A DNA stretch of 64,000 bases, from positions 3,780 through 67,779 of the IMG/VR virus record IMGVR_UViG_3300017708_001323. One strand, written 5' to 3'. Shown piece by piece: positions 32,742 through 63,590 of this stretch; position 1 is the stretch's first letter; every line of letters starts with the position of its first letter. Both the position numbers and the translations under genes were made by a program. The DNA comes from a virus (taxonomy: Duplodnaviria; Caudoviricetes). The notes beneath the pieces were generated by a model. That model was not told the DNA's origin. It did no database searches and worked only from the letters and a program-made list of their open reading frames with translations.

Positions 32742-33872
32742 TTATTGTAGGTCCCTCACACTACCATGAGCACCAAAGAAAGTAGTCCATACTTCACCCA
32801 TGGTTCGGTATAGTCCTTCTTGGCCCAGTCTGTTAATTGCGAATGGGTCACCTGTTTCGATACCACTCTCATAATATTGTGTTGGAATTGCTGTACTAAA
32901 GTAAACGTAGTCTGTATCTAAGAAGTACATTCTACTGATTCCATCTTTAGGTACGTCCTTGGAAGGAATGATTGGAACACCGTTGTATGTTGCAACAATG
33001 AAACCAGCCTCGATTCCCGGTACACCCTTTACTCCGTTGTAAGTAGGTGTAACTCTCTTCTCTTCCATGAATCTCTGTTGTGACTGCAATAGTTGTTGTA
33101 GTCTCATTAGAGTATCATATCCAGTTAGAATAACTTTCGGGTTTCCTCCACGTTCCCAGATGTTCTGGAAAAGTGTATCTAATTGGTCCAAAGAAAGGTT
33201 CCTGTTAGCACTGCTTGCGTCTGCGTTATCTTCAGCAAAAGCCCAAGTGTTAGCACTTCGGTCAATTGAGTAAATATCTTCGTCACCAGCATCGTAGTGA
33301 GTACCAGCAGCCATTTGGTTGTTACCGACAGTAATTCTATCCAAAGACTCGAAGTTGTTAGCAGCAACGGTAGAAGCATCTGTTAGAAGCATCTTGTTTA
33401 CCATTTCTGCGTGGTGCTTACCCATCTCTTCTTTCATTACTGAACGAATGTCACCAAGACCGTCATCCTTGTCTGCAAGGAAGATTGCTGTCTCAGACAT
33501 ATCGAATGTGTGAGCAATGGTCTTTGGCTTTGCTGCAACATGTTGGAAAGTAGGCTTTACAGTCTCAGGTAGTGTTGCGTTTTCTGCAACTCCACCGTGT
33601 AGAGCACCGCCGTTAGGCTTTCCAGTAATTACACGCCATCCAGAACGGTCCCAAGGTCTCTTTGGTAGAATAGAGAACGCATTGAACTCTTGGTTCAGTT
33701 GCGACCATACTTTTCTACCATAGATTGCTTGGTAAGTACCAGCGGTTGTGGATAGCATTGGGCTATCCGATTTCAGTAGTTCGCTACCAGAGTATGAGTA
33801 ACCCATTGAGTTACCTGCACCATAGTAGTATCTTTCCATATCAGTTATTGTTCGTACATAATTTCTTGCCAT
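32742..33872 (-). CDS. Major capsid protein (HK97 fold), 376 aa
   Basis: Follows the prohead protease; motifs AIYGRKVWSQLN, GGVAENATLP, PKTIAHTF and ATYNGVPIIPS resemble halovirus/magrovirus MCPs. Confidence 0.9.
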   Translation of the reverse strand: MARNYVRTITDMERYYYGAGNSMGYSYSGSELLKSDSPMLSTTAGTYQAIYGRKVWSQLNQEFNAFSILPKRPWDRSGWRVITGKPNGGALHGGVAENATLPETVKPTFQHVAAKPKTIAHTFDMSETAIFLADKDDGLGDIRSVMKEEMGKHHAEMVNKMLLTDASTVAANNFESLDRITVGNNQMAAGTHYDAGDEDIYSIDRSANTWAFAEDNADASSANRNLSLDQLDTLFQNIWERGGNPKVILTGYDTLMRLQQLLQSQQRFMEEKRVTPTYNGVKGVPGIEAGFIVATYNGVPIIPSKDVPKDGISRMYFLDTDYVYFSTAIPTQYYESGIETGDPFAINRLGQEGLYRTMGEVWTTFFGAHGSVRDLQ

Positions 33873-33890: not shown

Positions 33891-35261
33891 TTATGCACTC
33901 CTAAATGCGCTGTTTGCAAGGTTGTGCACCTCATCCCATGACATTTCTGCCAAGTCTTCTGTAGAAGGAACGTTAATTGAAGGAACAGAATCTGCACTCT
34001 TTGCAAGTGTTTCACCTGTTTCTGCTGGTGTTGTGATTGAATCAATTCTCTCAGATAGAGAAGAAATTGCTTTTGAAATCTCATCTAATGGTCCACGAGC
34101 GTCAAATTCCATTGCAGTTGCTTTGGTAATTTCTGCTGTTCTTTCTGATTCATATCGGCTTGCGAAGTCATGTTCAAGGGATTTGCGTAGTTCCGCTTCT
34201 TCCATTGCTGCTTTGTAAACTTCGTATGCAGCCTCTACATCAGATGTAGATACCATATCAGGAGTTAAGAAATCGGATTTTGCAACTTTTCCACCACTAC
34301 CAGTAGTTTTACCTACAGCGTTAGTAGAAGGTGCACCGTTTTCTTGAGCACGACCTTTAACTTGAGCCGCGAAATAATCAGCACCATCGCCGATTGCTTC
34401 AGGGGTTGAGCCAAGGTTGGCTTTTTCGAGTCCATCGAAGTGACTTCTTGCACCGTTAACATCGACTCCAGCACTCTTTAGAGTGTCTTCCATCCAGTTT
34501 AGGTATTCAGAAGTAATGACATCGGAAAACTCTGACTTTTCTACGTCAGCATCTTCTTTCTTTTTGTCATCTTTTGCTTCTTTTTCATCGGCTTTCTCGG
34601 GTTTGTCTCCCTTCTTGTCCATCGCTTCTTTCAGAGCAGGAGGCATTGCTTTCTCCATATCATCAAGGCGACCTTCAAGGCGAGACAAGACATCAGTCAT
34701 TTGCGTCATAACATTATCATCGTTTGTCATATTTTTCACCATTTGGTCTTGTTTCAATATCCTAAAGGTGGCCTCAGGATTGATGCCCCTCTCACATATT
34801 GTAATCTCGTGAAGTTCTAGTTTGCTGATTTCTTGGTAATCACCGTGTTCAGCGTCTGATTTTCGGACACGCTTGAAAGCCTGTCCTCCAATACTAAAAC
34901 CACGAAGCGAACCCTTTCTTATTTCTGCGGCGACTTCTTTCGCCTTCTCAATGTCATCTCTCAAAGCAACGACAACAAACATTCCTGTGTCATCAACTTC
35001 GCTTTTCCACAAACGACCTTGGTTGTCGGTGTAAGAAGGAATAACCTCACCGACCTGTATATTTGAATGTGCTAACTGTACATTACGAAACTTTTCATCT
35101 TGCATGTACTTTGCAAAAGCATCTTTTAATGCATTTTTAGTAATTTTGTCACCTTGTTTATCAACAACTTCAACACTAGCATATCCAGCAACAACTAGGT
35201 CTCCACCTTTGAGAATAGTGATGCCTTGAGTATTACTGGAACGAACTGTCGCAGACATCAT
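33891..35261 (-). CDS. Prohead protease (HK97-type) fused to a scaffold region, 456 aa
   Basis: VVAGYASVEVVDKQGD, LAH, LRGFSIGG and LHEITIC..GINPEA motifs, followed by an acidic coiled-coil C-terminus. Confidence 0.9.
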   Translation of the reverse strand: MMSATVRSSNTQGITILKGGDLVVAGYASVEVVDKQGDKITKNALKDAFAKYMQDEKFRNVQLAHSNIQVGEVIPSYTDNQGRLWKSEVDDTGMFVVVALRDDIEKAKEVAAEIRKGSLRGFSIGGQAFKRVRKSDAEHGDYQEISKLELHEITICERGINPEATFRILKQDQMVKNMTNDDNVMTQMTDVLSRLEGRLDDMEKAMPPALKEAMDKKGDKPEKADEKEAKDDKKKEDADVEKSEFSDVITSEYLNWMEDTLKSAGVDVNGARSHFDGLEKANLGSTPEAIGDGADYFAAQVKGRAQENGAPSTNAVGKTTGSGGKVAKSDFLTPDMVSTSDVEAAYEVYKAAMEEAELRKSLEHDFASRYESERTAEITKATAMEFDARGPLDEISKAISSLSERIDSITTPAETGETLAKSADSVPSINVPSTEDLAEMSWDEVHNLANSAFRSA

Positions 35262-41367: not shown

Positions 41368-41706
41368 TTAATACAACTCCATTGGTGTTTTTACATTATC
41401 AGCCATGTCATGAATTTCTTCCCAACTCATTTCATGAATCTGTTCGTTAGTGTAATTGTCTAATTGCCCTTCTGATTTTTGAAGATTAATTGCTTCCTCT
41501 CCTCTAAAAGCATCCCCAGAGACATCTTCACTAAGAGGTGTGGAAATCCTAACAAAACCAGATTTTTTCAAAAGAGCAGCAGGGTTGTTCATCATATTTT
41601 TTAAGATTTCATTTTCCCTTCTTACTGCGTTTATGTCAGATTCCATAGATTCCATTTTCGTAATAAGAGCGTTAACCAATCGCTCTTCAGTGGTTTCTTC
41701 TGACAT
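41368..41706 (-). CDS. Putative scaffold-like protein, 112 aa
   Basis: N-terminal coiled coil; the C-terminal EMSWEEIHDMA matches the protease C-terminus EMSWDEVHNLA. Confidence 0.6.
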   Translation of the reverse strand: MSEETTEERLVNALITKMESMESDINAVRRENEILKNMMNNPAALLKKSGFVRISTPLSEDVSGDAFRGEEAINLQKSEGQLDNYTNEQIHEMSWEEIHDMADNVKTPMELY

Positions 41707-47508: not shown

Positions 47509-49763
47509 TACAATCCCTCCATAAATGCCACTTTAACGGCTTTGATGATGCTTTCGTCTATTTTGAATGTTTTAGATATTCTGTTCCAATCACCCTTAGA
47601 AAGTAAAATCGCTTTTACATCTGTCTTTGTGATTTGAGTTTTACTAGCCATATATGATATATCATCTTCACTATAGATACTTAACTTCTGTTGTGGTAAT
47701 AATTTACGAACACTATCATCAAGCCTAGCATCTCTAATCTGTAGATTCTCCATTGCTTTGATTAGTCTATCTTCTACAGAAGAATCTTCGGCTTTGAATG
47801 TAAGTGGTAATCTCTCTTGTCTTAAGTCAGAAACAGATGATTGATATCTAGCAAGACGCTCTTGTGCTTCAGGAGAAGAGAAATCTGGAGTTCTTTGACC
47901 CCCGCCCATATATTGGGTCGGAGGCTGTCTGGCTGCATATACTCTTTGCACTTGTTCAGGTGTAGCGTATTGGAAAGCCCGTCTTGCATCAGCCATTGTG
48001 GGACCACCGCCCGCAGCAGAAGTGTCAAGAGTTGGTGCTCTTTCTTGTACTGCTACTTTTTTCCTCGCTGCCGGATTAATTGTAGCAGTTCTTGTTTCTG
48101 TAGAGTTATCACTTGATGGTGTAAAACTAGCATTGGTATTTGAGAATTCTCGACCAGTTACTGATGGACTTGTTGTATGAATATAATTATCTAAAATGTG
48201 TGGTCCAAATTCCTGATTAGAAATACCCGAACTAAGTCTAGAACCAACAGCACGAGAAGGCATTTCTTCTGCTGATAAAATCGGTCTATCTGGTGTATGT
48301 CCATGATGATGTGATAAGAGTCTAGCAACTTGTTCAGTCATTCTTCTTTGCCCTTCTACATCAGGATGTAAAGGTTGAGAATGTTCAAAATCTAAATCTC
48401 TCATAGCACTAATACCACCACCCTGTTCAGATTCACCCATTAAATTTGCAAAGGCGTATAAATCGGCAGCAACGCCGTGACTCTTTTTCCTTCTATCTAA
48501 TTGATATCTAGTCTTTAGTTTACCAGCGCTTATATGGGTTCTAAAATCATTATACTCCATAGCACCTTCAGGGGTATTGACATTTTCTCTTAATGCGTTT
48601 ACCACTTGACCCGCTATTCCTTGTTTTGGGTCTCCCATAAGAAGATGTAAAGCAGCAGGTGTTTCATTTAATTTTCTAACTGCTGCATTGGCTAATGTTG
48701 CATCTGAAATAACTTGCCCTAGAGTAAAAGTTCCACCAGCATCAGCAAAGAACGGCTCATTCAAAACTTCGGGTGGTATTTTCTTAGGGTTTAATTCTAG
48801 AAGTGTTTGTGCTAACTTGTCTATCCCAGCATTTCTACCCGATTTACCTGTAGAATACATTACATCAGGTAAATGACGCATCATCTCCCAAGAATGAATA
48901 TCACCAACTGTTTGTCCTAATTTTTCTTGGCCCATTCTTTGTAGAAACTTATCAGATAGTTGACCTTCTGGACCTAACTGGTCTCCCAAAATTCCTTTTT
49001 TACGACCAGCAACAGGCTTCCCATTATTGGAATTAATCGCTAAATCATCAACTGATATATTATGATGAGTAATACCCTCTTCATATTTTCCTAATTGAAT
49101 ACCGTCTTCTACTAAAATATCTTTAATGAAATGAGCCATTGGTATTGAGTATGTTTCACCAAATCTACCAAGTATACCATGCGCTTTACTATTTGAAAAT
49201 ACAGTACCGAACTGATTGTGTCTATCTGTCCCCGCTTCCTCACTACCATGGGAACCTCTAATTTTCATTCCTAAAGTTTCATCTTTATTTTTTCCAGATT
49301 GATAATCCATCAACTTAAGTTTTCGCCATTCATGTGATTCTACATGTGGTAAAATATGATTATCGTCTCCTCTCTTAGTTTTCTCATCGTTGTATCTTTG
49401 AATGGCTTCTTGAACAACTTCTCTAGGGTCTTTTTTAGACCCCGCTTGTTTTAATTTAAAACCTACTTTTCTAATTAAACCATCAATACCATGCATATGG
49501 TCAACACCAAATTCATCTCTCCAAACTTTTTCACCATATTCACCAGTACCCCACTGACCTTTAGTACCTTCATCTTTATCTCCATAATGAGAAAACATTG
49601 GTCTATCAAAACCTTGAGGGTGAGAATCATCATGGTTTCCATGCATTATATATTCAGGATGATTTCCTAAGTAGTAACTTTCTCCAGTAACAGGATGGAA
49701 GCCGTGATTCCCATCACCTTTGAAAATTAATTTTGGTTTAGAAAAATCAACTACAACTCTCAT
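47508..49763 (-). CDS. Hypothetical protein, 751 aa (putative internal virion protein)
   Basis: Long coupled ORF; H/G-rich; carries LIFKG, LTFKA and LIKA motifs. Confidence 0.65.
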   Translation of the reverse strand: MRVVVDFSKPKLIFKGDGNHGFHPVTGESYYLGNHPEYIMHGNHDDSHPQGFDRPMFSHYGDKDEGTKGQWGTGEYGEKVWRDEFGVDHMHGIDGLIRKVGFKLKQAGSKKDPREVVQEAIQRYNDEKTKRGDDNHILPHVESHEWRKLKLMDYQSGKNKDETLGMKIRGSHGSEEAGTDRHNQFGTVFSNSKAHGILGRFGETYSIPMAHFIKDILVEDGIQLGKYEEGITHHNISVDDLAINSNNGKPVAGRKKGILGDQLGPEGQLSDKFLQRMGQEKLGQTVGDIHSWEMMRHLPDVMYSTGKSGRNAGIDKLAQTLLELNPKKIPPEVLNEPFFADAGGTFTLGQVISDATLANAAVRKLNETPAALHLLMGDPKQGIAGQVVNALRENVNTPEGAMEYNDFRTHISAGKLKTRYQLDRRKKSHGVAADLYAFANLMGESEQGGGISAMRDLDFEHSQPLHPDVEGQRRMTEQVARLLSHHHGHTPDRPILSAEEMPSRAVGSRLSSGISNQEFGPHILDNYIHTTSPSVTGREFSNTNASFTPSSDNSTETRTATINPAARKKVAVQERAPTLDTSAAGGGPTMADARRAFQYATPEQVQRVYAARQPPTQYMGGGQRTPDFSSPEAQERLARYQSSVSDLRQERLPLTFKAEDSSVEDRLIKAMENLQIRDARLDDSVRKLLPQQKLSIYSEDDISYMASKTQITKTDVKAILLSKGDWNRISKTFKIDESIIKAVKVAFMEGL

Positions 49764-50995
49764 GGTGTCGCGCCCCCTCGCCCAACATCATGACCGACTG
49801 TATCAATTCCGAAGTGGCGAGGGTCTGTCTTTGCGTCTTCTGTAGCCCCTTCATTTCTATTCGTAGATTTAGGAGCATTACTAGGGTGTTTTGGTAGATT
49901 ACTCCCAGCACCACTTGTATCAGCATTTCCATATCCTTTCTTCTTACTTTCTTTTTCTCTAAGGATTCTTCTAGTTCTATTGAGTAATTGTCTTAATTCT
50001 TGTACGGTAGCCCAATCAAAACCACCTCTTCTTTTTTGTAATTCTGAACCAATGAATATATCTTCGCTTGTCATAACAGGCATTGGTGGTGGAGGTGCTG
50101 GCATACCAGAGGCACCACCGCCCATAGCCAAGTGTGGAGCACCAGAAATTCTTGGTGGTTGAATTGGTGGAGGTCTCATTGGTTTTAATTTAGGTTTAGG
50201 TACTTTTCCTGAAAAACCCACAACTGATGCTGGGGTTGGAGAAGCAGGTGTTCTTACCTGACCTTGTTGGGCCATAGCACCTTGTCTTGCCATAAAACTT
50301 GCATATTTTCTAGGGTCTTCTAATCTCATAGGTTGTTTTGTTTTCAGACCACGGTGAGACATCTCAACTGCTAAGTGTGCTCTACCTAACCCAGTTTTCT
50401 TAGAACCACCTAGACTTCTTGACAGCGCTTTTGCTCTTCTAGATGTTGCAGACTTAGGAGAATAGCCACCTTTTGGTTTTTTGAACTCACCAGTGCTTGG
50501 ACGACCCTTTTTCCTAGCCTCCTTTTTACTTTGCTTTTCTCTCTGTTTTTTGGTTTTCGCTTTTCTTAATTCAGACCAAGCAGCAGCCATAGGTTCACCA
50601 GTAGAAATTAACTCACCTCTACCAACGCCGGGACCTTTTGCTCCACCTGCTAAACTAGATAAAAAGCCAAAATTACCCGCAGCACCTGTTTGTAAGTGAG
50701 TCTCTCGGTCTGCATCATATTTGTCGGAGTCATCTTCTCTTTCTTCATCTTCTTCTTCGTCTCCAACATTTCTTAAAATACCCGGTTTTACTTTGATATG
50801 TTTTCTTCTACGAAGTTTTTTCTCGTGTTTCTCTCTTTCTTTCCTTTTCTTTTCTTTTTCCATATCTTCATAACGAGGGTCGCCGGGATTATAACTACCA
50901 TCTCCGTCATTATTTCTGAACATAATAGACGATTCTGAACGAGGAGCGTACATTCTGGTATCAGAACCTCTTCCCATCATACCTTCAGTCATCAA
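49760..50995 (-). CDS. Basic low-complexity protein with an internal AWxxLRKA motif, 411 aa
   Basis: K/R-rich and P-rich blocks; contains MAAAWSELRKA. Confidence 0.65.
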   Translation of the reverse strand: MMTEGMMGRGSDTRMYAPRSESSIMFRNNDGDGSYNPGDPRYEDMEKEKKRKEREKHEKKLRRRKHIKVKPGILRNVGDEEEDEEREDDSDKYDADRETHLQTGAAGNFGFLSSLAGGAKGPGVGRGELISTGEPMAAAWSELRKAKTKKQREKQSKKEARKKGRPSTGEFKKPKGGYSPKSATSRRAKALSRSLGGSKKTGLGRAHLAVEMSHRGLKTKQPMRLEDPRKYASFMARQGAMAQQGQVRTPASPTPASVVGFSGKVPKPKLKPMRPPPIQPPRISGAPHLAMGGGASGMPAPPPPMPVMTSEDIFIGSELQKRRGGFDWATVQELRQLLNRTRRILREKESKKKGYGNADTSGAGSNLPKHPSNAPKSTNRNEGATEDAKTDPRHFGIDTVGHDVGRGGATP

Positions 50996-56030: not shown

Positions 56031-56384
56031 TTAACAGTTCCAGCGTTTTAGTGCAGCACCTTTTGGTGTTAATTTCCCATCCTTACTAGTCGGCCCTTTA
56101 CTTCCGCCCATTCTAGCACAAAATGACTTTCGCCTTTTTGCTGCTTTACTACCGGGTTTTAGTGAACTTGGTTTTTTAGTAACAGGTCTTTTCAAGTTAG
56201 CACCTGTTTCTCTTTTTGCTTTGGCTCGACCTTTTGCATTTAATCCACCACTTCTACTATGTCTGTTTGGATTATAACCATGAAATGGTTTTGATTTTTT
56301 TGCTTTCTCAAAAACAGAATCTAACAATGCTGCTGATGCTTGTTGCATAGGTGAACAACAATCACATATGTCAAAATTATTCAT
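56031..56384 (-). CDS. Basic small protein (DUF6321-like marine phage family), 117 aa
   Basis: GGLNAKGRA..LKRPV..RRKSFCARMGG..ALKRWNC motif, recognised from marine phage proteins. Confidence 0.65.
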   Translation of the reverse strand: MNNFDICDCCSPMQQASAALLDSVFEKAKKSKPFHGYNPNRHSRSGGLNAKGRAKAKRETGANLKRPVTKKPSSLKPGSKAAKRRKSFCARMGGSKGPTSKDGKLTPKGAALKRWNC

Positions 56385-57111
56385 TTCTCACTCCTATCTC
56401 ATTCAAGAAAGATTGTCCCTTTGCCCTCATTATTGCTCTTTCTGCGATTTCTTCAGGAGTACCAGTTACATCAATAGAAGGTTTAGCACTAAGATATTCT
56501 TCAACAGGTACATATGGACGAGTATAAGAAAAATCAAGAGCGTATATGTCATTTTCAGGGTAATCTCTACCTTCAAATTGGTCCATTACGTTAGGTTCTC
56601 CTTCGAAAGGTGAATCAGGGTGGTCGTGATTTCTTTCAGCCTGAGTTTCATCTAACAATTTCTCCCTACCTCTACGGGCGACACCGCCAGTCTGTTTGTA
56701 ATTACGATGTCTCCTAGGGTCGGTTTCCCATTCCATTGTTTCAGGCTTTATCGGTAAGGTCGCTTTCAACACATCCCACGCTGCGGAGAAAGCACTCATG
56801 TCGCTTCGCATAGTGTAGTCTGTCTTAACAATTGTTGGTTTCCCACCCACACCTTGCTTTTTTGCACGTTTTCTTTTTGTCGCTGCTTGTTTCTCACCTG
56901 ATGACATAGAACCTGATGTTTTAGGTGTTTTACTTGAAACTTTGATTGAAGGTCTGCATTTAGGATAACCTTTACCTGAAAGTTTTCCCTTGCTTCTACC
57001 ACATGGTGGGTGCTTACCATCTTTAGTACGTGACACATCTACCCATTTTTCCTTAAACCAACGGTTTAAGTTTTTTACAATGAGCACATCGTGACAAGTA
57101 CATCGTGTCAT
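56377..57111 (-). CDS. DUF5872-like basic domain fused to an AFxxAWxxLK-leader module, 244 aa
   Basis: LNRWFKEKWVDV..CGRS..YPKCRP, then an internal MSAFSAAWDVLKA. Confidence 0.65.
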   Translation of the reverse strand: MTRCTCHDVLIVKNLNRWFKEKWVDVSRTKDGKHPPCGRSKGKLSGKGYPKCRPSIKVSSKTPKTSGSMSSGEKQAATKRKRAKKQGVGGKPTIVKTDYTMRSDMSAFSAAWDVLKATLPIKPETMEWETDPRRHRNYKQTGGVARRGREKLLDETQAERNHDHPDSPFEGEPNVMDQFEGRDYPENDIYALDFSYTRPYVPVEEYLSAKPSIDVTGTPEEIAERAIMRAKGQSFLNEIGVRNE

Positions 57112-57269
57112 AGAATTCCTACCATTTTCTTAATGTTCTTTTGTTTGTCTATCAGTGCATAGCAAGGACATTTAGGAGAAGATACTGAACATTGATTACC
57201 TTCAATCATACAAACACAAGGTGTTTTTTTAGTACCACCGCAACAACATTTATCTTTCTTAAGTTTCAT
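57108..57269 (-). CDS. Cys-rich metallothionein-like micro-protein, 53 aa (not in the ORF track)
   Basis: MKLKKDKCCCGGTKKTPCVCMIEGNQCSVSSPKCPCYALIDKQKNIKKMVGIL; ATGA overlaps at both ends. Confidence 0.7.
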   Translation of the reverse strand: MKLKKDKCCCGGTKKTPCVCMIEGNQCSVSSPKCPCYALIDKQKNIKKMVGIL

Positions 57270-57439
57270 TTCTTTTTCTTCCCCTTAAATTTACCACGAC
57301 AATATTGCACAGCCCAACCATTAGCATAAGCAGATGGGTAGACTTTGAACTTTCTTTTTGCTGCTGCTTTTCCAGCAGGACATAATTTTTTCCAAACAGT
57401 GTCCATACCCACACAATGACCACAATCACAACTATTCAT
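57266..57439 (-). CDS. Small basic 'YPSAYA' protein, 57 aa (not in the ORF track)
   Basis: MNSCDCGHCVGMDTVWKKLCPAGKAAAKRKFKVYPSAYANGWAVQYCRGKFKGKKKK; GGTGA RBS; ATGA overlaps at both ends. Confidence 0.75.
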   Translation of the reverse strand: MNSCDCGHCVGMDTVWKKLCPAGKAAAKRKFKVYPSAYANGWAVQYCRGKFKGKKKK

Positions 57440-58311
57440 TTTTTCACCTTAACCTTACGAAGTGTACCTCGATTTTTAAAATGCCTAGCCCTATTACTAC
57501 TTTGGTTTTCTAAAGTAAACTTCCCACCTTGAGTATGGCTAATATCTTTTTTATTATTTGAACCATAAATACCCCTGCGCCTACGCTCACGATTCAAATC
57601 TACTCGATATTTCACCCTTTCAGGACTAGACTCGTATTTTTTATCATAGGCCAACTTATGTTGTCTGGCCGCTTCAGACATTTTTCTTTTTGGTGCTTTA
57701 ATTAGAACCATTTTATTTACAGTTTTTGGACCCGGAGGTAAAGGTGGTAAAATTCTAACTCTTGCTGCTTTTTTCTTTTTTGCTTTTCTTGCTCTTCTTA
57801 TTGCAACTTGTGGATTATTTGTATTGATTTTTTCAGGTGAAGCGTCTATAACGTGGTCAACATTCATAGTCCCCGGACCATCACCTCTTGCAAATTTTTG
57901 GCCTGAACCCCTAAGCATTACGGTTTTTACTTGAGGGGTACTATGTTTTTTATGAGGTCTAATTATACTCACAATGGTATTTCCATGTGAATGTCTTAAC
58001 CCTTTTTCATTTACACCAAGAGGGTTTCTAAAAGAATCTAAAAAATGAGTTCTTACTGCTACATTTCTAGGGGCGTTTTTAGTATAATTACCTAAAGGAC
58101 CCATAATTCCAGCATCAACTAAACCTTGTATAGTTCTAGTTTTTACTTCAGAGTTTTCATTTTCATCATGTACACGAAGAGGGTCACTCAATCTTTCAGA
58201 CGCATGTCCTGCAAAAAACTCTGGGGGTAATTTTGATGTATTAACTTCTGGAGGCTCTAAAAGGGTATTTTCATCTTTTAAGATATAATTTACCATTATA
58301 TCGGAAAACAT
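57436..58311 (-). CDS. Two-domain protein: HAxER-type segment plus a C-terminal HNH-like domain, 291 aa
   Basis: GHASERL near the N-terminus; RVDLNRERRRRGIYG..KDISHTQGG..ENQSSNRARH at the C-terminus, after a VLIKA motif. Confidence 0.5.
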   Translation of the reverse strand: MFSDIMVNYILKDENTLLEPPEVNTSKLPPEFFAGHASERLSDPLRVHDENENSEVKTRTIQGLVDAGIMGPLGNYTKNAPRNVAVRTHFLDSFRNPLGVNEKGLRHSHGNTIVSIIRPHKKHSTPQVKTVMLRGSGQKFARGDGPGTMNVDHVIDASPEKINTNNPQVAIRRARKAKKKKAARVRILPPLPPGPKTVNKMVLIKAPKRKMSEAARQHKLAYDKKYESSPERVKYRVDLNRERRRRGIYGSNNKKDISHTQGGKFTLENQSSNRARHFKNRGTLRKVKVKK

Positions 58312-58320
58312 GTAGCCCCC

Positions 58321-58656
58321 TCATTGTCTTCGAGCATTCATCATTTCTTGAAGTTGGTTTGCTAAATAATCCGCTTCTGCTCGCATTTGTGAAGCACCGT
58401 GTGGGTCAGTAGCCATCATTTGTTGTGCTCTTGCGTCCATTTCGTGAACTTTTTGACGCATAGCCTGTAGATTCATTCCTTGAGCAGCACCAGCACCAAC
58501 TCCCATTTGGTTGTAATCTTTCAAAAACTCAAAGGCTTTTTTCATTGCTTCGGGTGTCGCTGTGTCTTGTGGTGATTTAGGAGAAGGTGGAGTAACAGCA
58601 ATTACTAAACTCATTCCTTTCTTTTTCTTTTTTCCGTCCATTTTTTCTTCACGCAT
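58321..58656 (-). CDS. Hypothetical protein with a KAFEFLKD motif, 111 aa
   Basis: Leader-like internal motif; M/Q-rich helix. Confidence 0.6.
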   Translation of the reverse strand: MREEKMDGKKKKKGMSLVIAVTPPSPKSPQDTATPEAMKKAFEFLKDYNQMGVGAGAAQGMNLQAMRQKVHEMDARAQQMMATDPHGASQMRAEADYLANQLQEMMNARRQ

Positions 58657-58658
58657 AC

Positions 58659-58952
58659 TTACATCTCCTTTTCTTGCATCATTCTTCTAACCATAGCCAC
58701 TAATTTATCTTTAGACATATTAGCAAATTCATCTTGTGGGACTTCATCATAATTATCTAGAGGTGTTCCTGTTGGTTCATTGTCTTGACGCATTGATTGT
58801 GAGTGTAATCTCGCAGCAGCCATTTTTTCTGCTCTAGTTGTAAAAGGTGGAAAATCATCATTTCTATCAAAAGGTTGCTCTCTATGTCTATCATCTACAG
58901 AATCATACCACGCTTTTCTTAATAAGTTCCATGATATTTCAAATGCATCCAT
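58659..58952 (-). CDS. Leader-family protein (MDAFEISWNLLRKA), 97 aa
   Basis: GGAG RBS; N-terminal leader motif. Confidence 0.7.
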   Translation of the reverse strand: MDAFEISWNLLRKAWYDSVDDRHREQPFDRNDDFPPFTTRAEKMAAARLHSQSMRQDNEPTGTPLDNYDEVPQDEFANMSKDKLVAMVRRMMQEKEM

Positions 58953-58953
58953 T

Positions 58954-59244
58954 TTATCTACTCCTTGATACTCTAACTAAGCCAGTTTGTTTACGCATTT
59001 TTGGTCTTTGTACTCCCCGCGATACCTGTCTTGCGTACTTCGCTTTGGTTTTTCGGGTTTTAACCTTCCGGGCTAATCGTTGAACTTTAGCCTTTGCTTG
59101 CTTTTTTGGTCGGTCAGAAATGTAACTTTTACCAGCATATCCGAATTGACCTTTTAAGAGGTCATCTATGATGTCGGCTGGTTCAATCACAGTATTCGAG
59201 ACAAGCAGAACACTTTTACCATTTCGCTGATTGGGTAGTTTCAA
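58954..59244 (-). CDS. Small basic protein (start uncertain; GTG at 59190 is plausible)
   Basis: DDLLKG motif followed by a K/R-rich tail. Confidence 0.55.
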   Translation of the reverse strand: MKLPNQRNGKSVLLVSNTVIEPADIIDDLLKGQFGYAGKSYISDRPKKQAKAKVQRLARKVKTRKTKAKYARQVSRGVQRPKMRKQTGLVRVSRSR

Positions 59245-59543
59245 TGGGCTATGTTCTAGTCAAGGCTGCACCTGTTGTTGCTGCTGCTGCTGGTGGTGCT
59301 GCTGGTGGTGCTGGTGCTGCTGCTGGTGGTGCTGCTGGTGGTGGTGCTCTTGCTTCAAAGATAGGAGTTAAAGGTGCTGTAAAAGGAGCATTAGGTTTGA
59401 AAACATTCCAATCTTTAAATGATGCTAAAAATCAAGCAAAAGATATTTCTGGACAAAATCAGGGTCAATATAAACAATTAGCGGCTGAAACTCGTCAGAT
59501 GTTAAGAGATAAGGCTTCTACGAATTCCGCTCAGTTTTCCTGA
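59244..59543 (+). CDS. Ala/Gly-rich small protein, the only likely complete plus-strand gene, 99 aa
   Basis: Starts MGYVLVKA, then (GCT/GGT)n low complexity; fills a gap that has no long minus-strand ORF. Confidence 0.6.
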   Translation: MGYVLVKAAPVVAAAAGGAAGGAGAAAGGAAGGGALASKIGVKGAVKGALGLKTFQSLNDAKNQAKDISGQNQGQYKQLAAETRQMLRDKASTNSAQFS

Positions 59544-60422
59544 AACATAAATATAGGCTCTTTCAGCCATCGGAATATTAACAATTCCTTTTAGGTACAT
59601 TTCAGCGGCCTCTAATTTTGCAATATCTACAGATTGTTCAATTTCAATTCCGTAATCCGAAGCCCAGTCAATTAAATACCGAGTTGGTAAATTACCAAAA
59701 CTACCCGGAACAAAAGGACAACCACCTAAACCGCCCAAAGAAGTATCGAACTCCCTAATACCGGATAAGTAGGCAGCATCCAGTAAATGTGAAAATTCAA
59801 CCTTCCTACTACTAGGCTTGTGTAGGTGAATGGCTAAATTTGGCATAATTTCTCGGGCAATTTTTACCACGGTGGTAATTTCTTTTGGAGTCGCTATTCC
59901 TGTAGTGTCTGCTAAAACTATTGTAGAAGAGTTTTCAGCCCCCCATTTTAAGATTTGAATAAAAAGAGACTCATCATAATCATCGAAAGCGGAACCAAAA
60001 GCGCAAGAAATGTATAACCTCACCTGTTCAGGAAGAGTCTCTTCTAGAGCAACTTCATATCTTTCTAGTATTCTATCAATACTTGGTGTACCTAAATTGC
60101 GGGTATTGAACTCTGGAGAAGGTGAAAGATAGATATTGAAGAGATTCACACCCGCTTCTTTTGCTAATTCTAAACCTTTTGCGTTTGGGACTAATGCTGA
60201 AATTTGATTATCTTCTTGATTTATTCCCTTTAAAACCAATGCGGTATCTTTCATTTGAGGTACCAAAGCGGGATTCACAAAACTTCCAACTTCTATTTTA
60301 TCCAATCCCGCTGCAATTAACATATCAATTAAATACGCTTTTTGCTCAGTAGGAACTTCTTTAGAAATAGACTGTAAACCGTCTCTTGGACCCACTTCAT
60401 AAATTGTTACTGGGTCACTCAT
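59502..60422 (-). CDS. hmgL: Hydroxymethylglutaryl-CoA lyase (DRE-TIM family), auxiliary metabolic gene
   Basis: EVGPRDGLQ, IEVGSFV..VPQM, LADTTG, HLH, GLGGCPF and GNLPT motifs; likely start MSDPVTI at 60422. Confidence 0.9.
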   Translation of the reverse strand: MSDPVTIYEVGPRDGLQSISKEVPTEQKAYLIDMLIAAGLDKIEVGSFVNPALVPQMKDTALVLKGINQEDNQISALVPNAKGLELAKEAGVNLFNIYLSPSPEFNTRNLGTPSIDRILERYEVALEETLPEQVRLYISCAFGSAFDDYDESLFIQILKWGAENSSTIVLADTTGIATPKEITTVVKIAREIMPNLAIHLHKPSSRKVEFSHLLDAAYLSGIREFDTSLGGLGGCPFVPGSFGNLPTRYLIDWASDYGIEIEQSVDIAKLEAAEMYLKGIVNIPMAERAYIYVSGKLSGIRRSLIS

Positions 60423-60435
60423 GGGGTGTGCGAAC

Positions 60436-60627
60436 TCACTGTCGTAAATTAGCATATCGCTGGAAAAGCAATCCAGCCTCCTCTTCTAGCCGAGTATTAC
60501 CACTCATCATCATCTTCAAAATTGTTGACATAACAATTTGTCTTTCTTCAACAGTAAAATTTGATTCCGGCGGGTACGCTTTTAGCACTTGCCAAGCCTC
60601 AGTAAAAGGTTCAGGAGTGGTACTCAT
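60436..60627 (-). CDS. Leader-family protein (PFTEAWQVLKA), ~63 aa
   Basis: ATG at 60627 lies 22 nt downstream of a TTTATAAA box. Confidence 0.65.
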   Translation of the reverse strand: MSTTPEPFTEAWQVLKAYPPESNFTVEERQIVMSTILKMMMSGNTRLEEEAGLLFQRYANLRQ

Positions 60628-60648
60628 CAGTAGTAATCGCAGGTATGC

Positions 60649-60656
60649 TTTATAAA
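60649..60656 (-). promoter_or_regulatory. TATA box
   Basis: TTTATAAA at archaeal leaderless spacing from the ATG at 60627. Confidence 0.5.
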
Positions 60657-60789
60657 TAAACCCGTCGTAGTGACGTTTTACATGGTTCATGAGGCTTTTA
60701 ATGACCTTTTACGGGGACAAATACGCAAAACAATACGAAAATCAATCATTTCACTTATGGTAGGGCTGATAATAGTAGGTATATTTGTA

Positions 60790-61722
60790 TTAAGACCACT
60801 GCTGTAATACTTCTGGGGGTATTGAACCCTGACGAACTCTACTCATACCACCTTGTAAATCACCATAATCTGGCTCTTGATGTTCTACATATTTAGGTAA
60901 ATCTGCTGTTTTCATTCGCACAACTCCTACTTTTGAAGGGTCTTGCTTTGTTCTTCTTGCCCTTTCTTGTGCAAATCTTAGTGCTGCTTCTGGGTCTGTA
61001 GTTGTATAATTTACTAAATCTGCTGCTCTTAATGCTTCAGGCACATATCTTTTTGAACGAGTTTTAGGACTTCCACCTCTTATTCCGTGTTGTAAAACGC
61101 TAGGTAAATCTACAGTTCCGTGGTATTCATACGCTTTTTCTACGAATTGGTCATAAATAGCATCTGTCGGTAAACCGTGATATTCAGCATATTCAGGATT
61201 TAATTCATGTCGCCAAGGTTGCATTTTATCGTCATATGCGTGGGTGTAATGTTTGTCACCAGCGTTATTAGTTCTAATGTAGCCTGTTGAATGTGCCCCA
61301 TCAATCACACCAGCATCAACCATTTTATCCCAAAAACCCGTTGCACCGTGTTCTACATTTGTAACATGTACTCCGTCAAGAAGAAAACCATCATTATCAA
61401 TAAAATAATCTTGACCTTCTTCAATAAAATCTTCAAGATATTTTCTTGCTTTACCTTGACCTTTTACATCACTATTTAATTCAAAATTATCTATTTTTAT
61501 AGAGTTTTTAAAATCATCAGGATATATTGTACCTCTTGCGTTTCCATCTTCAGATTCCCACATGTACGGTTTTCCCATTTCTTCTAGGTTAGGTAACATT
61601 GTAAATCTATCATCTTGCCCCAGTGAATCAGAATAATTAGGCCAATCACCTTCTTCAAATGTGGAAGGTGCTTCATAAATCGGAGCCTTCAGCAGAGACC
61701 ACGCTTGGTCGAAGGGGTTCAT
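60790..61722 (-). CDS. Leader-family protein with GNAT-like and ADP-ribosyltransferase (Tpt1-like) domains
   Basis: MNPFDQAWSLLKA leader; IDNFELNSDVKGQGKARKYL..ATGFWDKM (GNAT-like); after FVEKA, YHGT..VLQHGI..YTTTDPEAALRFA (ART-like). Confidence 0.6.
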   Translation of the reverse strand: MNPFDQAWSLLKAPIYEAPSTFEEGDWPNYSDSLGQDDRFTMLPNLEEMGKPYMWESEDGNARGTIYPDDFKNSIKIDNFELNSDVKGQGKARKYLEDFIEEGQDYFIDNDGFLLDGVHVTNVEHGATGFWDKMVDAGVIDGAHSTGYIRTNNAGDKHYTHAYDDKMQPWRHELNPEYAEYHGLPTDAIYDQFVEKAYEYHGTVDLPSVLQHGIRGGSPKTRSKRYVPEALRAADLVNYTTTDPEAALRFAQERARRTKQDPSKVGVVRMKTADLPKYVEHQEPDYGDLQGGMSRVRQGSIPPEVLQQWS

Positions 61723-61742
61723 GTCACAGCCACCTTGTCCTG

Positions 61743-62111
61743 TCAATCATAAAGACCGCCTAATCCTTTCCAATCCTCAACACCATAAGGTGTTTGAGCA
61801 TCAAAATGAAGCCCGGAAGCAGGGTGATACACCCATTGGTGAATTGCAGGGTCATCGGGATGATTCATAATCTGAGCCTTGCCGCCGTTTTCCTGAATTA
61901 AATGGTGGAGATTATCGGAGAAGTCGAAACAATGACTTTCATGCTCACTAGGGTCAGAGGGCCAATCACCACCGTCTGTTAGTATGCTTCTCTTTGACGG
62001 GCCGTTTTCAAGAGAATGATGGATGAAATCTGTTATGTCGCTCGCATCTATCTTGAGCAAAGCCCACGCTTGGTCGAAGGGACTACTGCCAACCTGAAGG
62101 TCTTTTGTCAT
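61743..62111 (-). CDS. Leader-family protein with a Cys-His-Asp (papain/transglutaminase-like) domain, 122 aa
   Basis: PFDQAWALLK leader; HCFDFS...HQWV...HFDA. Confidence 0.55.
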   Translation of the reverse strand: MTKDLQVGSSPFDQAWALLKIDASDITDFIHHSLENGPSKRSILTDGGDWPSDPSEHESHCFDFSDNLHHLIQENGGKAQIMNHPDDPAIHQWVYHPASGLHFDAQTPYGVEDWKGLGGLYD

Positions 62112-62292
62112 ACGTGTTACCTCCTGTTGGTCTAGGCTTTGGGGTCATATTTTGCATATTTTTGCGAGCATCAGCGTTTCTAGCCATTATCATGTCTTGT
62201 AAAGTCATAAAATTACCTGAACCGGGAGGATATTCGTGCATATCAATAGGGTCTGCTTTGAGGAAATCCCATGCTTCATTGAATGCGGTCAT
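62083..62292 (-). CDS. Leader-family protein (MTAFNEAWDFLKA), 69 aa
   Basis: GAGGT RBS and TAATG coupling. Confidence 0.7.
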   Translation of the reverse strand: MTAFNEAWDFLKADPIDMHEYPPGSGNFMTLQDMIMARNADARKNMQNMTPKPRPTGGNTYDKRPSGWQ

Positions 62293-62465
62293 TATACCTC
62301 ACTCCCACATTTCCAACACCTATAACCTGTTGAAGAACTTCTATCTTCGTTAGGTATAGGAAATGATGGCTCTCCAGTATATTCATCTATTTTCCCTTCA
62401 CAATTAGGACATCCCAACGGTCTATCTTCTTTGAGAACAGCCCATGCTTCATCGAATGCGGTCAT
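62292..62465 (-). CDS. Leader-family Zn-ribbon micro-protein, 57 aa (not in the ORF track)
   Basis: MTAFDEAWAVLKEDRPLGCPNCEGKIDEYTGEPSFPIPNEDRSSSTGYRCWKCGSEV; coupled at both ends. Confidence 0.75.
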   Translation of the reverse strand: MTAFDEAWAVLKEDRPLGCPNCEGKIDEYTGEPSFPIPNEDRSSSTGYRCWKCGSEV

Positions 62466-62833
62466 TGTTGACCCTCACCCATTCTATACATGTTATAATT
62501 TCTTTCAGGATGACCCATAATCATACCTCTATCACGAAAGACTTTTCCATTTATGTCTATGTCATTATCTCTATATGCATTTAGATTTAGATTAGAAATT
62601 CTATTACCTTGCTCGTCTACATTATCGGTAGTCGAGATTCTTCTCAATAAACTTTGAATTGCTGGATGTACGGTCCCAACAGCACGATTCCCTCTATCGT
62701 CTGCCTTATACCCTTCTTCATATCGGTAATCTTCAGGATGTTCAGTTAAGTTTCTTACGGCAGTAGGTGGTAGAAACATTGTTTGTTCAGGTAAAGCCTT
62801 TAGAAACTTCCAAGATTCTTCAAACGCTGTCAT
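62462..62833 (-). CDS. Leader-family protein (MTAFEESWKFLKA), 123 aa
   Basis: Leader motif; ends in MGEGQQ like its upstream neighbour. Confidence 0.7.
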   Translation of the reverse strand: MTAFEESWKFLKALPEQTMFLPPTAVRNLTEHPEDYRYEEGYKADDRGNRAVGTVHPAIQSLLRRISTTDNVDEQGNRISNLNLNAYRDNDIDINGKVFRDRGMIMGHPERNYNMYRMGEGQQ

Positions 62834-63339
62834 TGTTGACCCTCCCCCATTTCACGAGCAAGCCTTTCTTTTTCCTCTCGATTTTTTCTAGCGTATTCGG
62901 ATTCATAAGAATTAACCTTATTTCTGCGCCTTTCTAGTTGTTCATCTGGCGTTAGTTCATTGTAATCCATCTGACTTACATCTACGGGAGTTCGTGCGGC
63001 CATCTGCTGCGGCCTTTTGACATTCCGCATTCTAAAATCTCCACGACCCTTGAGAAAATCCATCGCCTTAGCCATAGGCATCATAGGAGACATGGACATA
63101 TCACCACCATTGTCTTTCGGAGTCTTTTTACGAGATTTTTCACCCATTTCCTTTGTTTTGTGGTGTGTAACGAGGGTTTTCGCCTCTTGATAATCCATTC
63201 CCAGATTTTGGATTAAGAAATCTATGAGTGCCTCAGCATCCAAATCTTTGTGGGAATAAGACTCTTGTGGCGGTACATCTCCTCCCATCGGCATTTCGGT
63301 CATTTTGAGAACAGACCATGCTTTGCTGAATGCAGACAC
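62830..63339 (-). CDS. Leader-family protein with two leader motifs, 169 aa
   Basis: MSAFSKAWSVLKM at the start and an internal MAKAMDFLKG; GTG start. Confidence 0.7.
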   Translation of the reverse strand: MSAFSKAWSVLKMTEMPMGGDVPPQESYSHKDLDAEALIDFLIQNLGMDYQEAKTLVTHHKTKEMGEKSRKKTPKDNGGDMSMSPMMPMAKAMDFLKGRGDFRMRNVKRPQQMAARTPVDVSQMDYNELTPDEQLERRRNKVNSYESEYARKNREEKERLAREMGEGQQ

Positions 63340-63464: not shown

Positions 63465-63590
63465 GCGCTAAAGGTTGCGCTAATGTAATGCCTCCGGCTA
63501 AGGTGCGCTAATGGGGTGCGCTAAAGCGGTTTCTGGGCTGTTTTGGGTGGTAGGGTTTGGCGCTAAAGTCCCCGCTAAAGCCCCGCTAAT
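63465..63590 (+). repeat. Cluster of eight same-strand GCTAA repeats (five as GCGCTAA) in a GC-rich non-coding region
   Basis: Copies start at about 63465, 63477, 63496, 63505, 63518, 63560, 63573 and 63584. Confidence 0.8.

Follow-up and report, generated by a model that had tools for sequence, protein, structure and literature searches.

A short peptide common to unrelated proteins of a magrovirus-type virus as a probable label for loading into the virus head

Why should otherwise unrelated proteins of one virus carry the same short peptide? This question is raised by a stretch of 64,000 nucleotides (positions 3,780 to 67,779 of the IMG/VR record IMGVR_UViG_3300017708_001323; hereafter the window), in which the motif F-x-x-[AS]-W-x-x-L-[KR] is found on nine minus-strand ORFs between 56.4 and 63.3 kb. 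Judging from its sequence, the window belongs to a tailed archaeal virus of the magrovirus type, and it encodes a terminase, a portal, an S78 protease-scaffold and an HK97-type capsid protein. That the host is an archaeon appears likely from kinship and not from the window alone, since the closest named capsid proteins all belong to archaeal viruses and a Poseidoniales single-cell assembly contains one related contig. In the ocean, magroviruses rank among the most abundant viruses of archaea. With respect to the nine tags, we consider it probable that they mark proteins to be loaded into the virus head, after which they are clipped off in a T4-like manner, and, with a similar degree of confidence, that this constitutes a new variant of the T4-type capsid-targeting idea; no published account of the magrovirus tag or of its reading as a cargo signal was found in the literature.

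All nine copies claimed by the sequence-only reading are present where it had placed them, invariably on the minus strand, and at the DNA level the pattern has 9 matches in the window as compared to a mean of 0.08 and a maximum of 1 in 100 dinucleotide-preserving shuffles. Its further claim that similarity stops right behind the Lys agrees with an all-against-all blastp comparison of 16 proteins of the region, in which the similarity of the tagged proteins is restricted to the first 12-24 residues and ends at the Lys, with two small exceptions: one tagged pair matches weakly (28% over 84 residues), and the last six residues are identical in the proteins starting at 63339 and 62833. Taken together with the 61 blast clusters into which 141 payloads from the window and 80 relatives fall, the tag is a short peptide common to unrelated proteins of one virus.

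On the minus strand, where all the genes described here are located, a non-coding stretch of about 500 bp is followed by tagged gene 1 as the first gene (62830..63339; 169 aa, GTG start; tag at 63304-63339), for which no Pfam or PHROG family was matched. Behind it lie tagged gene 2 (62462..62833; 123 aa; tag at 62798-62833), whose payload contains a second short motif, HPAI..LLRR, common to other tagged families, tagged gene 3 (62292..62465; 57 aa; tag at 62430-62465), whose payload with its two CxxC pairs looks like a zinc ribbon, as had been proposed, all Pfam zinc-ribbon hits being sub-threshold, and tagged gene 4 (62083..62292; 69 aa; tag at 62257-62292). In tagged gene 5 (61743..62111; 122 aa) the tag occupies residues 10-20 (62052-62084) behind a 9-residue pre-sequence, and this pre-sequence together with the tag also precedes a different payload in a relative (P0123). 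Tagged gene 7 (60436..60627; 63 aa if the ATG at 60627 is the start; tag at 60580-60627) falls in the largest payload cluster, which has 15 members, and tagged gene 8 (58659..58952; 97 aa) carries an S-W and L-R-K variant of the tag (58914-58952). The remaining copy is internal: in a DUF5872 protein (56377..57111; 244 aa; DUF5872 domain at residues 14-85) it is found at residues 105-116 (56764-56799), preceded by a Met and followed by a 128-aa payload, and the same fusion of DUF5872, tag and payload is also found in relatives.

The variants KAMDFLKG, KAFEFLKD and AAAWSELRKA, which had been noticed as well, all exist. The first, within tagged gene 1 (63049-63072), may be a second, weak copy of the motif and is only a candidate tag. 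The second is a degenerate tag in a 111-aa protein (58321..58656) at 58519-58542, and the third a degenerate internal tag in a conserved late protein of 411 aa (49760..50995) at 50561-50593; in relatives the full motif is found at the corresponding place of both, in the late protein after about 139 residues. A DUF6321 protein of 117 aa (56031..56384) is without a recognisable tag, and its homologues in other magroviruses begin with one.

The largest payload belongs to tagged gene 6 (60790..61722; 310 aa; tag at 61687-61722), in which the tag is followed by a low-confidence linker, a GNAT-like domain (residues ~45-193) and a domain of ADP-ribosyltransferase (ART) fold (198-308). The AlphaFold2 model has a mean pLDDT of 82, with values of 92-98 over residues 201-310, and the top Foldseek matches (E 5.8e-4, probability 1.00) are KptA/Tpt1 enzymes, with other ART-fold proteins ranking next; as a predicted fold, residues 198-308 match solved ART-fold enzymes. 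The GNAT-like and ART-like labels given earlier to this payload are in this way backed at the level of the fold. In addition, the Atlas lead for this protein includes a cluster with an ART-PolyVal family (score 0.86).

Searching the window and the 80 relatives with a regular expression gave 144 hits, 113 of which sit 3-4 codons past the start codon; some tags are internal and follow 100-250 residues, which counts against a loading label, and up to 27 tagged ORFs occur within 20 kb of one relative. Codon use at the conserved positions is mixed (Phe: TTT 72, TTC 72; Ala: GCA 46, GCG 44, GCT 41; Lys: AAA 74, AAG 67; all six Leu codons occur), and since the codons vary freely, the tag is under selection as a peptide. 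An HMM of the leader, which had been suggested as a check, yielded 215 hits at 8 bits or more as compared to 0 in reversed decoys, 211 of the 215 being on the coding strand, and it is a conserved leader in front of diverse payloads, restricted to viruses of the same capsid and protease type, that was found. In line with this restriction, a 36-bit DNA pattern matches at least 117 IMG/VR stretches, 97 of which also hold a sequence homologous to a window protein. Applied to 596 Gb of prokaryote genomes, the pattern matches 30 stretches, with about 17 expected by chance, so that the motif is not equally common in cells, a finding that would have refuted the proposal; ten of the 30 represent one Chloroflexota family with an internal Met, three a single Glaciecola permease, and the sole Poseidoniales match, on a contig of 106 kb (a typical magrovirus size), is homologous to a tagged payload of magroviruses. 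The tag is thus almost confined to magrovirus-type viruses. Counting against a loading label, the core motif is not enriched in the cultured haloarchaeal relative HVTV-1 (2 matches vs 3 in the control).

A divergent lineage of low G + C content carries a shorter tag, M-x-W-x-x-I-L-K, on payload families common to both lineages; among 392 loci, 204 have the long tag only and 49 the short tag only. Both forms exclude Pro directly after the Lys. For the long tag this position has Pro in 0 of 170 unique tags, the next two positions in 25 and 29, and for the short tag in 0 of 178, with counts of 15, 7, 13 and 22 at the positions that follow. The short tag resembles the C-terminal tail of the scaffold, a likeness that comprises 5-6 residues including the initiator Met and was spotted post hoc; an HMM of that tail picks up short tags above decoys (60 real vs 11 decoy hits at 4 bits or more).

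That the Lys end may be a processing site is suggested by the head proteins. The S78 prohead protease-scaffold fusion (33891..35261, minus strand; 456 aa; Peptidase_S78, E 3.7e-10, 40.6 bits, cut-off 21) is encoded directly upstream of the capsid gene, and S78 proteases of HK97 and T5 are described as cleaving after Lys (PMC13517437). Conserved I-L-K triplets, both on the minus strand, flank the protease domain, one in front of it (35208-35219) and the other at its end (34752-34769). At the latter I-L-K is invariant with a gappy linker right behind, and at the former, [IL]-[IL]-K, the Lys alone is invariant and some gene calls start at L-K; the low-GC lineage retains aliphatic-aliphatic-Lys at both borders. 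The fusion ends in a conserved scaffold tail, E-M-S-W-D-E-V-H (33915-33947, minus strand). In the major capsid protein (32742..33872, minus strand; 376 aa) an invariant E-L-L-K at residues 31-34 (33771-33782) is a candidate maturation site: all 32 of the 32 sequences have L-L-K at residues 32-34, relatives whose capsid proteins are 44-48% identical have I-L-K, L-I-K or L-L-K followed by a variable insert, and the Lys site is also kept in a high-GC relative, so that conserved aliphatic-aliphatic-Lys sites in head proteins (capsid N-terminus and protease borders) extend over three lineages. The N-terminal 20 residues of the capsid protein are conserved between lineages, which could mean that they are retained. 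A 112-aa protein (41368..41706, minus strand) ends in the tail motif of the scaffold (41401-41433) and possibly docks, as a second protein, on the inside of the capsid. The leader HMM gave no significant match on the protease-scaffold, its best hits being the two I-L-K sites at scores no better than decoys. The tag end and the sites in the head proteins are alike in only three residues, and such triplets are expected at roughly 0.5 per protein by a rough estimate; therefore, the argument rests on the position and conservation of the sites.

The tag is modular, selected at the level of the peptide, lineage-specific, located at the head of the late operon and matched by Lys motifs in head proteins. 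The sequence-only reading, which had taken it for a capsid-targeting tag that is cut off after the Lys, is partly supported: every expectation tested in silico was borne out, namely modularity, the Lys end, restriction, the protease type, the Lys sites, the exclusion of Pro and the likeness to the scaffold tail; docking, cleavage, packaging and injection are steps that we infer from sequence. According to this proposal, M-x-[AP]-F-[DE]-x-A-W-x-[LVI]-L-K would be a two-part address label, in which a Trp-centred amphipathic helix would anchor the protein within the procapsid during assembly, either to the scaffold or to the interior of the capsid protein, and the aliphatic-Leu-Lys end would be the cut site of the virus's own S78 prohead protease. 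Cleavage would free the payloads within the head, and they would travel with the DNA into the archaeal host; the proposed cargo would comprise the GNAT-like and ADP-ribosyltransferase-fold enzyme, small basic proteins and zinc ribbons, as well as an HD hydrolase in relatives. The virion-proteome check suggested with the sequence-only reading has a weakness: trypsin, too, cuts after Lys, and therefore a peptide starting after L-K would not by itself demonstrate processing.

A more far-reaching form of this proposal, to which we adhere only tentatively, assumes a programmable cargo code for the entire family, in which a Trp helix of 8-12 residues ending in aliphatic-Leu-Lys might load any protein into the procapsid because it imitates the capsid-binding tail of the scaffold, with subsequent release by the head protease and injection along with the DNA. 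If so, the exchangeable arsenal would make up at least a tenth of the genes (as many as 27 in 20 kb), and the head proteins of two virus lineages and the two dialects of the tag would have evolved in concert.

Alternatively, the tag might dock on a partner outside the capsid, either a further viral factor or a hub protein of the host, and gather many early or accessory viral proteins in one place, with neither packaging nor cleavage. We regard this as unlikely, although docking peptides look much like this short amphipathic helix, in which the Phe, Ala-Trp and Leu positions are fixed, and the two tag flavours could track two lineages of hosts just as well as two lineages of capsids. Also the small, diverse and fast-changing tagged genes near the genome end are reminiscent of early phage takeover genes, for which such small variable arrays are likewise typical, and this counts against loading. 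However, docking outside the capsid leaves the strict Lys, the missing Pro behind it, the matching Lys motifs in capsid protein and protease and the resemblance between short tag and scaffold tail unexplained, and the tagged genes are found directly upstream of the structural genes on the same strand, gathering in near-complete genomes within about 9 kb (0 in a reversed-pattern control). The prokaryote search gave no motif in host genomes, which has no bearing on a host receptor.

The tagged proteins might also be members of one fast-diverging paralogue family, of which the N-terminus alone is conserved for a structural reason and is not transferable. The HPAI-type second motif in 8 payloads from 7 clusters, an 86% match between two window junctions over the 21 nt preceding the start codon and the common last six residues mentioned above do indicate local duplication. 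Common descent of the whole set is nevertheless highly improbable, as the payloads differ in fold or family (GNAT-like, ART-fold, HD_4, DUF6321, DUF5872 fusion, glycine zipper), identical pre-sequence and tag precede two different payloads, and the two domains of the 310-aa protein have homologues that bear the long tag, the short tag or none and are arranged in different orders, some untagged ones beginning at the residue directly following the Lys position.

Scarcely credible, finally, is an in-plane membrane anchor or unconventional export signal to the host membrane: the amphipathic N-terminal helix and the adjoining cassette of an Arf-like GTPase and membrane proteins (52.1-55.9 kb) would fit, but the tag has only about 9 residues with a conserved acidic one (the short flavour usually has two acidic residues, and just three hydrophobic positions), no hydrophobic stretch of signal-peptide length and fixed residues such as Ala-Trp that are rare in membrane helices, and some tags are internal. 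A Sec/Tat signal peptide, with its hydrophobic core of about 7-15 residues behind a charged N-region, was rejected, the tag logo being polar or acidic at every second or third position and ending after 9 residues, and so was an encapsulin cargo-loading peptide, given that portal, terminase and protease are all encoded by the virus and that the tag is N-terminal with a protease-type end.

Loading into the head, followed by clipping, can be compared with several known systems. With HK97 and T5 the virus shares the protease family S78 (Pfam Peptidase_S78) and its reported preference for Lys. Duda et al. are said to have described in 2013 that the HK97 protease itself is taken into the capsid by a terminal segment, and we know of no sets of unrelated tagged cargo proteins loaded by HK97 or T5 phages. 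Encapsulin cargo-loading peptides are likewise short peptides on unrelated cargo, directed to the inside of an HK97-fold shell. They are usually C-terminal and not removed, and the encapsulin shell, in contrast to magroviruses, has no portal, DNA or protease.

According to work on phage 80alpha (PMC5644958), the scaffold docks on the capsid protein inside the procapsid through an amphipathic helix of 11 residues plus a hook, and the same site serves SaPI1 CpmB, which carries this motif as well. Similarly, the magrovirus protease-scaffold and a protein of 77-112 aa share one C-terminal Trp motif, which the short tag resembles; the 80alpha/CpmB motif, however, is C-terminal, is no cargo label and is not cut off. 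Host-acting proteins are packed in the head of P1 (the Dar proteins) and of giant phages such as SPN3US (cleaved head and ejection proteins): P1 DarA is reported to bind the inner capsid surface and to lose an N-terminal fragment by proteolysis (PMC12810830), and many SPN3US head proteins to be cut by the prohead protease (PMC7411985), whereas in these two accounts no common short tag is described on such proteins. Polyvalent proteins of phages and conjugative elements are described as delivering effector domains with the incoming DNA (Iyer et al. 2017, PMC5512222). The ART-PolyVal cluster in the Atlas lead for the 310-aa protein provides a link to them, but where polyvalent proteins, as portrayed there, combine many domains in one giant polypeptide, the payloads here are mostly encoded one by one, in small genes that each have a tag.

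As with the capsid-targeting sequence (CTS) of T4, which is carried by the internal proteins and Alt and is removed by the prohead protease gp21, a short N-terminal peptide is the sole common part of a diverse and fast-evolving protein set. An ADP-ribosyltransferase is among the T4 CTS payloads. T4 internal proteins are described as having only this sequence in common, which takes them into the scaffolding core (PMC3012670), and anti-defence proteins are among them. The tag sequences themselves are unrelated, the function of the CTS is proven while that of the magrovirus tag is one we infer, and tags are far more numerous here (9 in the window, up to 27 ORFs per 20 kb in a relative), come in two flavours and belong to viruses of an archaeal host. 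T4 gp21 is of another protease family and cuts after Glu. With a protease of family S78 and a candidate site after Lys, the magrovirus tag would therefore work like the T4 system and not be a member of it.

A six-frame translation of the window contains nine matches to F-x-x-[AS]-W-x-x-L-[KR], all on the coding strand and all between 56.76 and 63.34 kb, and at the DNA level the corresponding tag pattern occurs nine times, whereas 100 shuffles yielded 0.08 matches on average and never more than one. The tag, a peptide of the form M-x-[AP]-F-[DE]-x-A-W-x-[LVI]-L-K, begins at the initiator codon in six of the nine copies, follows nine residues in one and an internal ATG (60627) in another, and in one case lies within a DUF5872 protein (residues 105-116, with Met before it). 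The sequence-only reading had described such a motif on at least nine otherwise unrelated proteins with a similarity that ends after the Lys, and both points are borne out: in blastp comparisons of 16 proteins of the region, the tagged proteins align with each other over their first 12-24 residues only, with two minor exceptions. The tagged genes lie close together in the same direction, with stop codons that overlap the next start codon, and the array comes after a non-coding stretch of about 500 bp. This stretch, which directly precedes the first tagged gene, holds TTAGCG seven times in direct orientation within 124 bp (63466-63589, minus strand; 20 copies in the whole window), and these repeats could bind proteins at a promoter or an origin. 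An untagged gene for an HMGL-like enzyme (59502-60455; Pfam E 2.8e-18) lies in the middle of the array and has homologues at the same place in relatives with the same tag. Since the record of 67,779 bases stops 660 bases past the last tagged gene, the array may be truncated. Searches of PHROGs returned only two matches, of unknown function, for the nine tagged proteins, and no family for ten neighbouring or tagged proteins.

All long ORFs of the window are located on the minus strand. Pfam identifies a head module of the tailed-virus type, with a large terminase (45194-46693), a portal (42107-43858), an S78 prohead protease that continues into a long scaffold-like C-terminal part (33891-35261, termed protease-scaffold here) and an HK97-type major capsid protein (32742-33872), each on the minus strand, as well as a tail-tube-like protein. 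Among named capsid proteins, the nearest ones come from archaeal viruses in 11 of 11 records, with about 33% identity to the haloarchaeal siphoviruses HVTV-1, HCTV-1 and HCTV-5. This fits how magroviruses are described by Philosof et al. 2017 (PMC5434244). A 407-aa ORF (43840-45063) situated between the genes for the terminase and the portal contains by eye a LAGLIDADG-like stretch, G-F-L-D-A-D-G-Y; Pfam gives one weak, unrelated match for it, and a homologue with 31% identity occupies the same position in a relative of low GC content.

In 80 loci of relatives sampled by their neighbouring GTPase gene, the regular expression for the tag matched 135 times, 132 times on the coding strand, and in 113 of the 144 matches from these loci and the window a start codon lies three or four codons before the Phe. 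A profile derived from the tag matches recovers 215 copies at 8 bits or more vs none in reversed sequences; the additional copies reveal tolerated variants, i.e., Phe replaced by Met or Ile, Leu replaced by Ile or Val, and Lys displaced by one residue, with the Ala-Trp almost fixed. The payloads, i.e., the protein parts after the Lys, fall into 61 blast clusters including 33 singletons (141 payloads of at least 20 residues, 3 of the 144 being shorter and left out). A Pfam scan of 60 of the 61 cluster representatives, the omitted one being a minus-strand singleton (locus L021), yields only a handful of matches, namely DUF6321, HD_4/HD, two glycine-zipper families and a double zinc ribbon, along with a sub-threshold match to PARP. 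A second short motif, H-P-A-I-x-x-[ML]-x-R-R, is found 15-45 residues past the tag in eight payloads of seven blast clusters, one in the window (62462-62833) and the others in seven loci of relatives (e.g., L009, L032 and L040).

At two gene junctions in the window, the 21 bases that precede the start codon are 86% identical, and the proteins starting at 63339 and 62833 share the same last six residues (62830-62850 and 62462-62480); both bear witness to recent duplication or to recombination where genes join. Together with an identical nine-residue pre-sequence that, followed by the tag, heads different payloads, the junction identity makes recombination at the tag plausible.

With respect to its distribution, a 36-bit DNA pattern encoding M-x-[AP]-F-[DE]-x-A-W-x-x-L-K was found in at least 117 IMG/VR stretches, and among the matches listed 97 of the 117 carry a homologue of a window protein, most of the others being short pieces of contigs of about 100 kb. 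Among these same matches, a high-GC contig of 96 kb with two tags encodes a capsid protein with 67% identity, and a capsid gene of this type is absent from four other high-GC loci checked, each with a single match; three of these look like the chance matches to be expected, and the fourth, a 27%-complete fragment, may carry a real tag. The motif might have been equally common in cellular proteins, which the sequence-only reading had named as an argument against itself, but in 596 Gb of prokaryote genomes the pattern occurs in only 30 stretches vs about 17 expected by chance, and this near-chance number therefore does not refute the proposed tag. Ten of the 30 belong to one Chloroflexota family (L279-L302, ten genome contigs), in which P-A-F-E-A-A-W-Q-x-L-K-D comes after an internal Met that has some 90-130 open codons before it; as a single family it looks like a chance resemblance and was used as a control. 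Three more represent one Glaciecola permease. The sole Poseidoniales match lies in a single-cell assembly, on a contig (L294) of 106 kb, a size typical of magroviruses, and is homologous to a tagged magrovirus payload; it is a possible direct link between virus and host.

In four records of 95-107 kb with this tag, 3, 2, 7 and 6 matches are found on the coding strand and none with the reversed-pattern control, and 16 of the 18 lie inside one stretch of about 9 kb that is located upstream of the late genes, at a contig end. Small variable genes arrayed close to a genome end also fit early genes for host takeover, with a shared helix that might serve to bind a hub of the host or the virus, and the internal position of some tags counts among the points left against a tag for cargo; nevertheless, we regard such a takeover function as unlikely and consider it reasonably probable that the tag docks cargo in the procapsid and that the S78 prohead protease then cuts after the Lys. 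A DNA repeat or translation-initiation element is rejected because the codons vary and some copies are internal: codon usage at the conserved positions is even, which shows that selection acts on the peptide. A cellular motif is rejected by the prokaryote search, a signal peptide by the tag sequences themselves, and a chance origin by the excess over the shuffled windows.

A second form of the tag became apparent from a 310-aa tagged protein, for which 67 representative relatives (50% clustering) were obtained. The long tag or a close variant heads 26 of the 67, a shorter tag, M-x-W-x-x-[IV]-[LI]-K, heads eight, and several untagged relatives start at the very residue after the Lys of tagged ones; the 67 relatives show that the protein is made up of two independent domains. 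An IMG/VR search for close relatives of the short-tag protein P0147 returned none; a metagenome scan did find such relatives. It yielded 25 loci, of which 15 with a GC content of 0.30-0.34 have the short tag only (27 tagged ORFs within 20 kb in one of them), eight with a GC content of 0.41-0.44 the long tag only, and two neither. The low-GC contigs are divergent relatives of the window virus, with identities of 35% for the terminase, 42% for the portal, 44-48% for the capsid protein and about 50% for the protease. In four short-tag genomes, 7-15 strict matches each are all on the coding strand (control 0), and in a complete one with terminal repeats the array spans both ends beside the structural genes.

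Over 392 loci, the long tag alone is present in 204 (510 matches), the short tag alone in 49 (204 matches), both in 21 and neither in 118. For 16 of the 21 mixed loci, the only "long" match is a conserved internal motif, the same in each, that lies shortly before the terminase gene. The tag thus goes with the virus lineage, whereas payload families cross between lineages. The pre-terminase motif in the low-GC relatives (L338-L411) reads A-M-K-K-A-W-x-I-L-K, lies about 100-900 bases upstream of the terminase gene, and comes after about 170-200 residues of a conserved ORF and before segments of variable length; it is intermediate between the two dialects.

In the structural model of the 310-aa protein (mean pLDDT 82), the tag forms a short helix (residues 3-11) within 35 initial residues that are largely of low confidence (pLDDT < 50 for 1-17 and 28-35), and confidence reaches fold level by about residue 50, with two domains thereafter. 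Among known structures, ADP-ribosyltransferase-fold enzymes of the KptA/Tpt1 type (E 5.8e-4) match one of these domains best and GNAT acetyltransferases (E 0.02) the other, in agreement with leads from the Atlas. In relatives, the tag is also found on an HD_4 hydrolase (28.8 bits, cut-off 27.2) and on small Lys/Arg-rich DUF6321 proteins.

The Lys that ends the tag has counterparts in the head proteins. Trypsin, too, cuts after Lys, so that tryptic proteomics alone cannot show a cut at the tag. Directly after the Lys, Pro was not found in any of 170 long tags (25, 29, 13 and 12 at the next four positions) or of 178 short tags (15, 7, 13 and 22), counts that come from related and hence not independent sequences; this absence is what a scissile Lys-X bond would give and marks a candidate cleavage site. 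In the capsid protein, residues 32-34 are L-L-K in 32 of 32 close relatives; the site reads L-L-K in the high-GC lineage and I-L-K, L-I-K or L-L-K, followed by a variable Gly-rich insert, in the short-tag lineage, and HVTV-1 keeps Lys-Ala-Asp at the homologous junction, where M-S-K is followed by A-D-N. An alignment of 39 protease-scaffolds, which replaces a regular expression that caught only 31 of 81 possible ORFs, shows that the protease domain closes with an invariant I-L-K, after which comes a linker with many gaps and with acidic and basic residues, and that a second site, [IL]-[IL]-K with invariant Lys, lies before the domain; both are kept as aliphatic-aliphatic-Lys in the short-tag lineage. 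The end of the long tag, [AS]-W-x-[LVI]-L-K, parallels the T-F-x-I-L-K that closes the protease domain; the Lys triplets of these candidate cut sites are short. In line with a cut at this residue, the S78 proteases of HK97 and T5 are reported to cleave after Lys (PMC13517437). A model of the capsid protein from a 32-row alignment (mean pLDDT 31.6) is too low in confidence to place residue 34 in the fold, and the capsid profile gave one weak match among solved structures (6j3q, residues 194-303), the N-terminus not being covered.

As to a docking site, the C-terminus of the protease-scaffold carries a conserved motif, E-M-S-W-[DE]-E-[VI], in both lineages (33915-33947 in the window), and a separate protein of 77-112 aa (41368-41706, 112 aa) has this Trp motif at its end as well, in the form E-M-S-W-[DE]-E-[IV]-H; in the low-GC lineage, too, both proteins are conserved, and the 112-aa protein may act as an adaptor or as a second protein of the scaffold type. 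A profile of the scaffold tail recovers short tags, e.g., M-S-W-E-D-I-L-K, at 3.5-6.6 bits, a likeness noticed post hoc, with 60 real vs 11 decoy matches at 4 bits or more and 27 vs none, mostly true tails, at 6 bits or more. The core of the tail in the high-GC virus, D-A-W-R-A-L, is nearer to the long tag; an HMM of the long-tag leader found nothing above decoys in the 39 protease-scaffolds, and a formal likeness of the long tag to the tail is therefore not supported. Co-folding of the capsid protein, the protease-scaffold and a 57-aa tagged protein with alignments scored 0.00 in both runs, which, in a three-chain design unlike the calibration of the tool, speaks neither for nor against binding.

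No description of the tag was found in the main text of the magrovirus papers examined or elsewhere in the literature searched, and no paper among the matches listed joins magroviruses with a capsid targeting sequence. New here are the negative control across prokaryote genomes, the exclusivity of the two dialects over the 392 loci with payload families common to both, the exclusion of Pro after the Lys in both dialects together with untagged homologues that start exactly after it, and the warning concerning tryptic proteomics. If docking and cleavage hold true, this cargo-loading code would have no described precedent among archaeal viruses and would be far more expanded than any other known, and dozens of "hypothetical" genes per magrovirus genome would become candidate injected effectors against Poseidoniales, a dominant group of archaea in the surface ocean that to our knowledge has never been cultivated. 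Proteins delivered by virions could then be found in metagenomes by a simple sequence rule, and foreign proteins could be loaded into HK97-type shells by means of a short, portable tag. A natural specificity experiment is offered by the two dialects, and the proposed reading can be tested without the uncultured host.

In HVTV-1, the nearest cultured relative, the core tag motif is not enriched, and the system therefore seems to have arisen within the magrovirus group. In phage 80alpha, it is a terminal amphipathic helix by which the scaffold docks on the capsid protein, and another protein that has this motif uses the same site (PMC5644958); the Trp tail common to the protease-scaffold and the 77-112 aa protein can be likened to this helix. 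The kinds of payload, i.e., ADP-ribosyltransferase-fold, GNAT, HD_4 and small basic proteins, match what T4 and P1 pack into their heads, according to PMC3012670 and PMC12810830, respectively. The functionally closest system is the capsid-targeting sequence of T4; however, as the magrovirus tag has an unrelated sequence, a protease of another family and a candidate cut after Lys, it is not a member of the T4 system.
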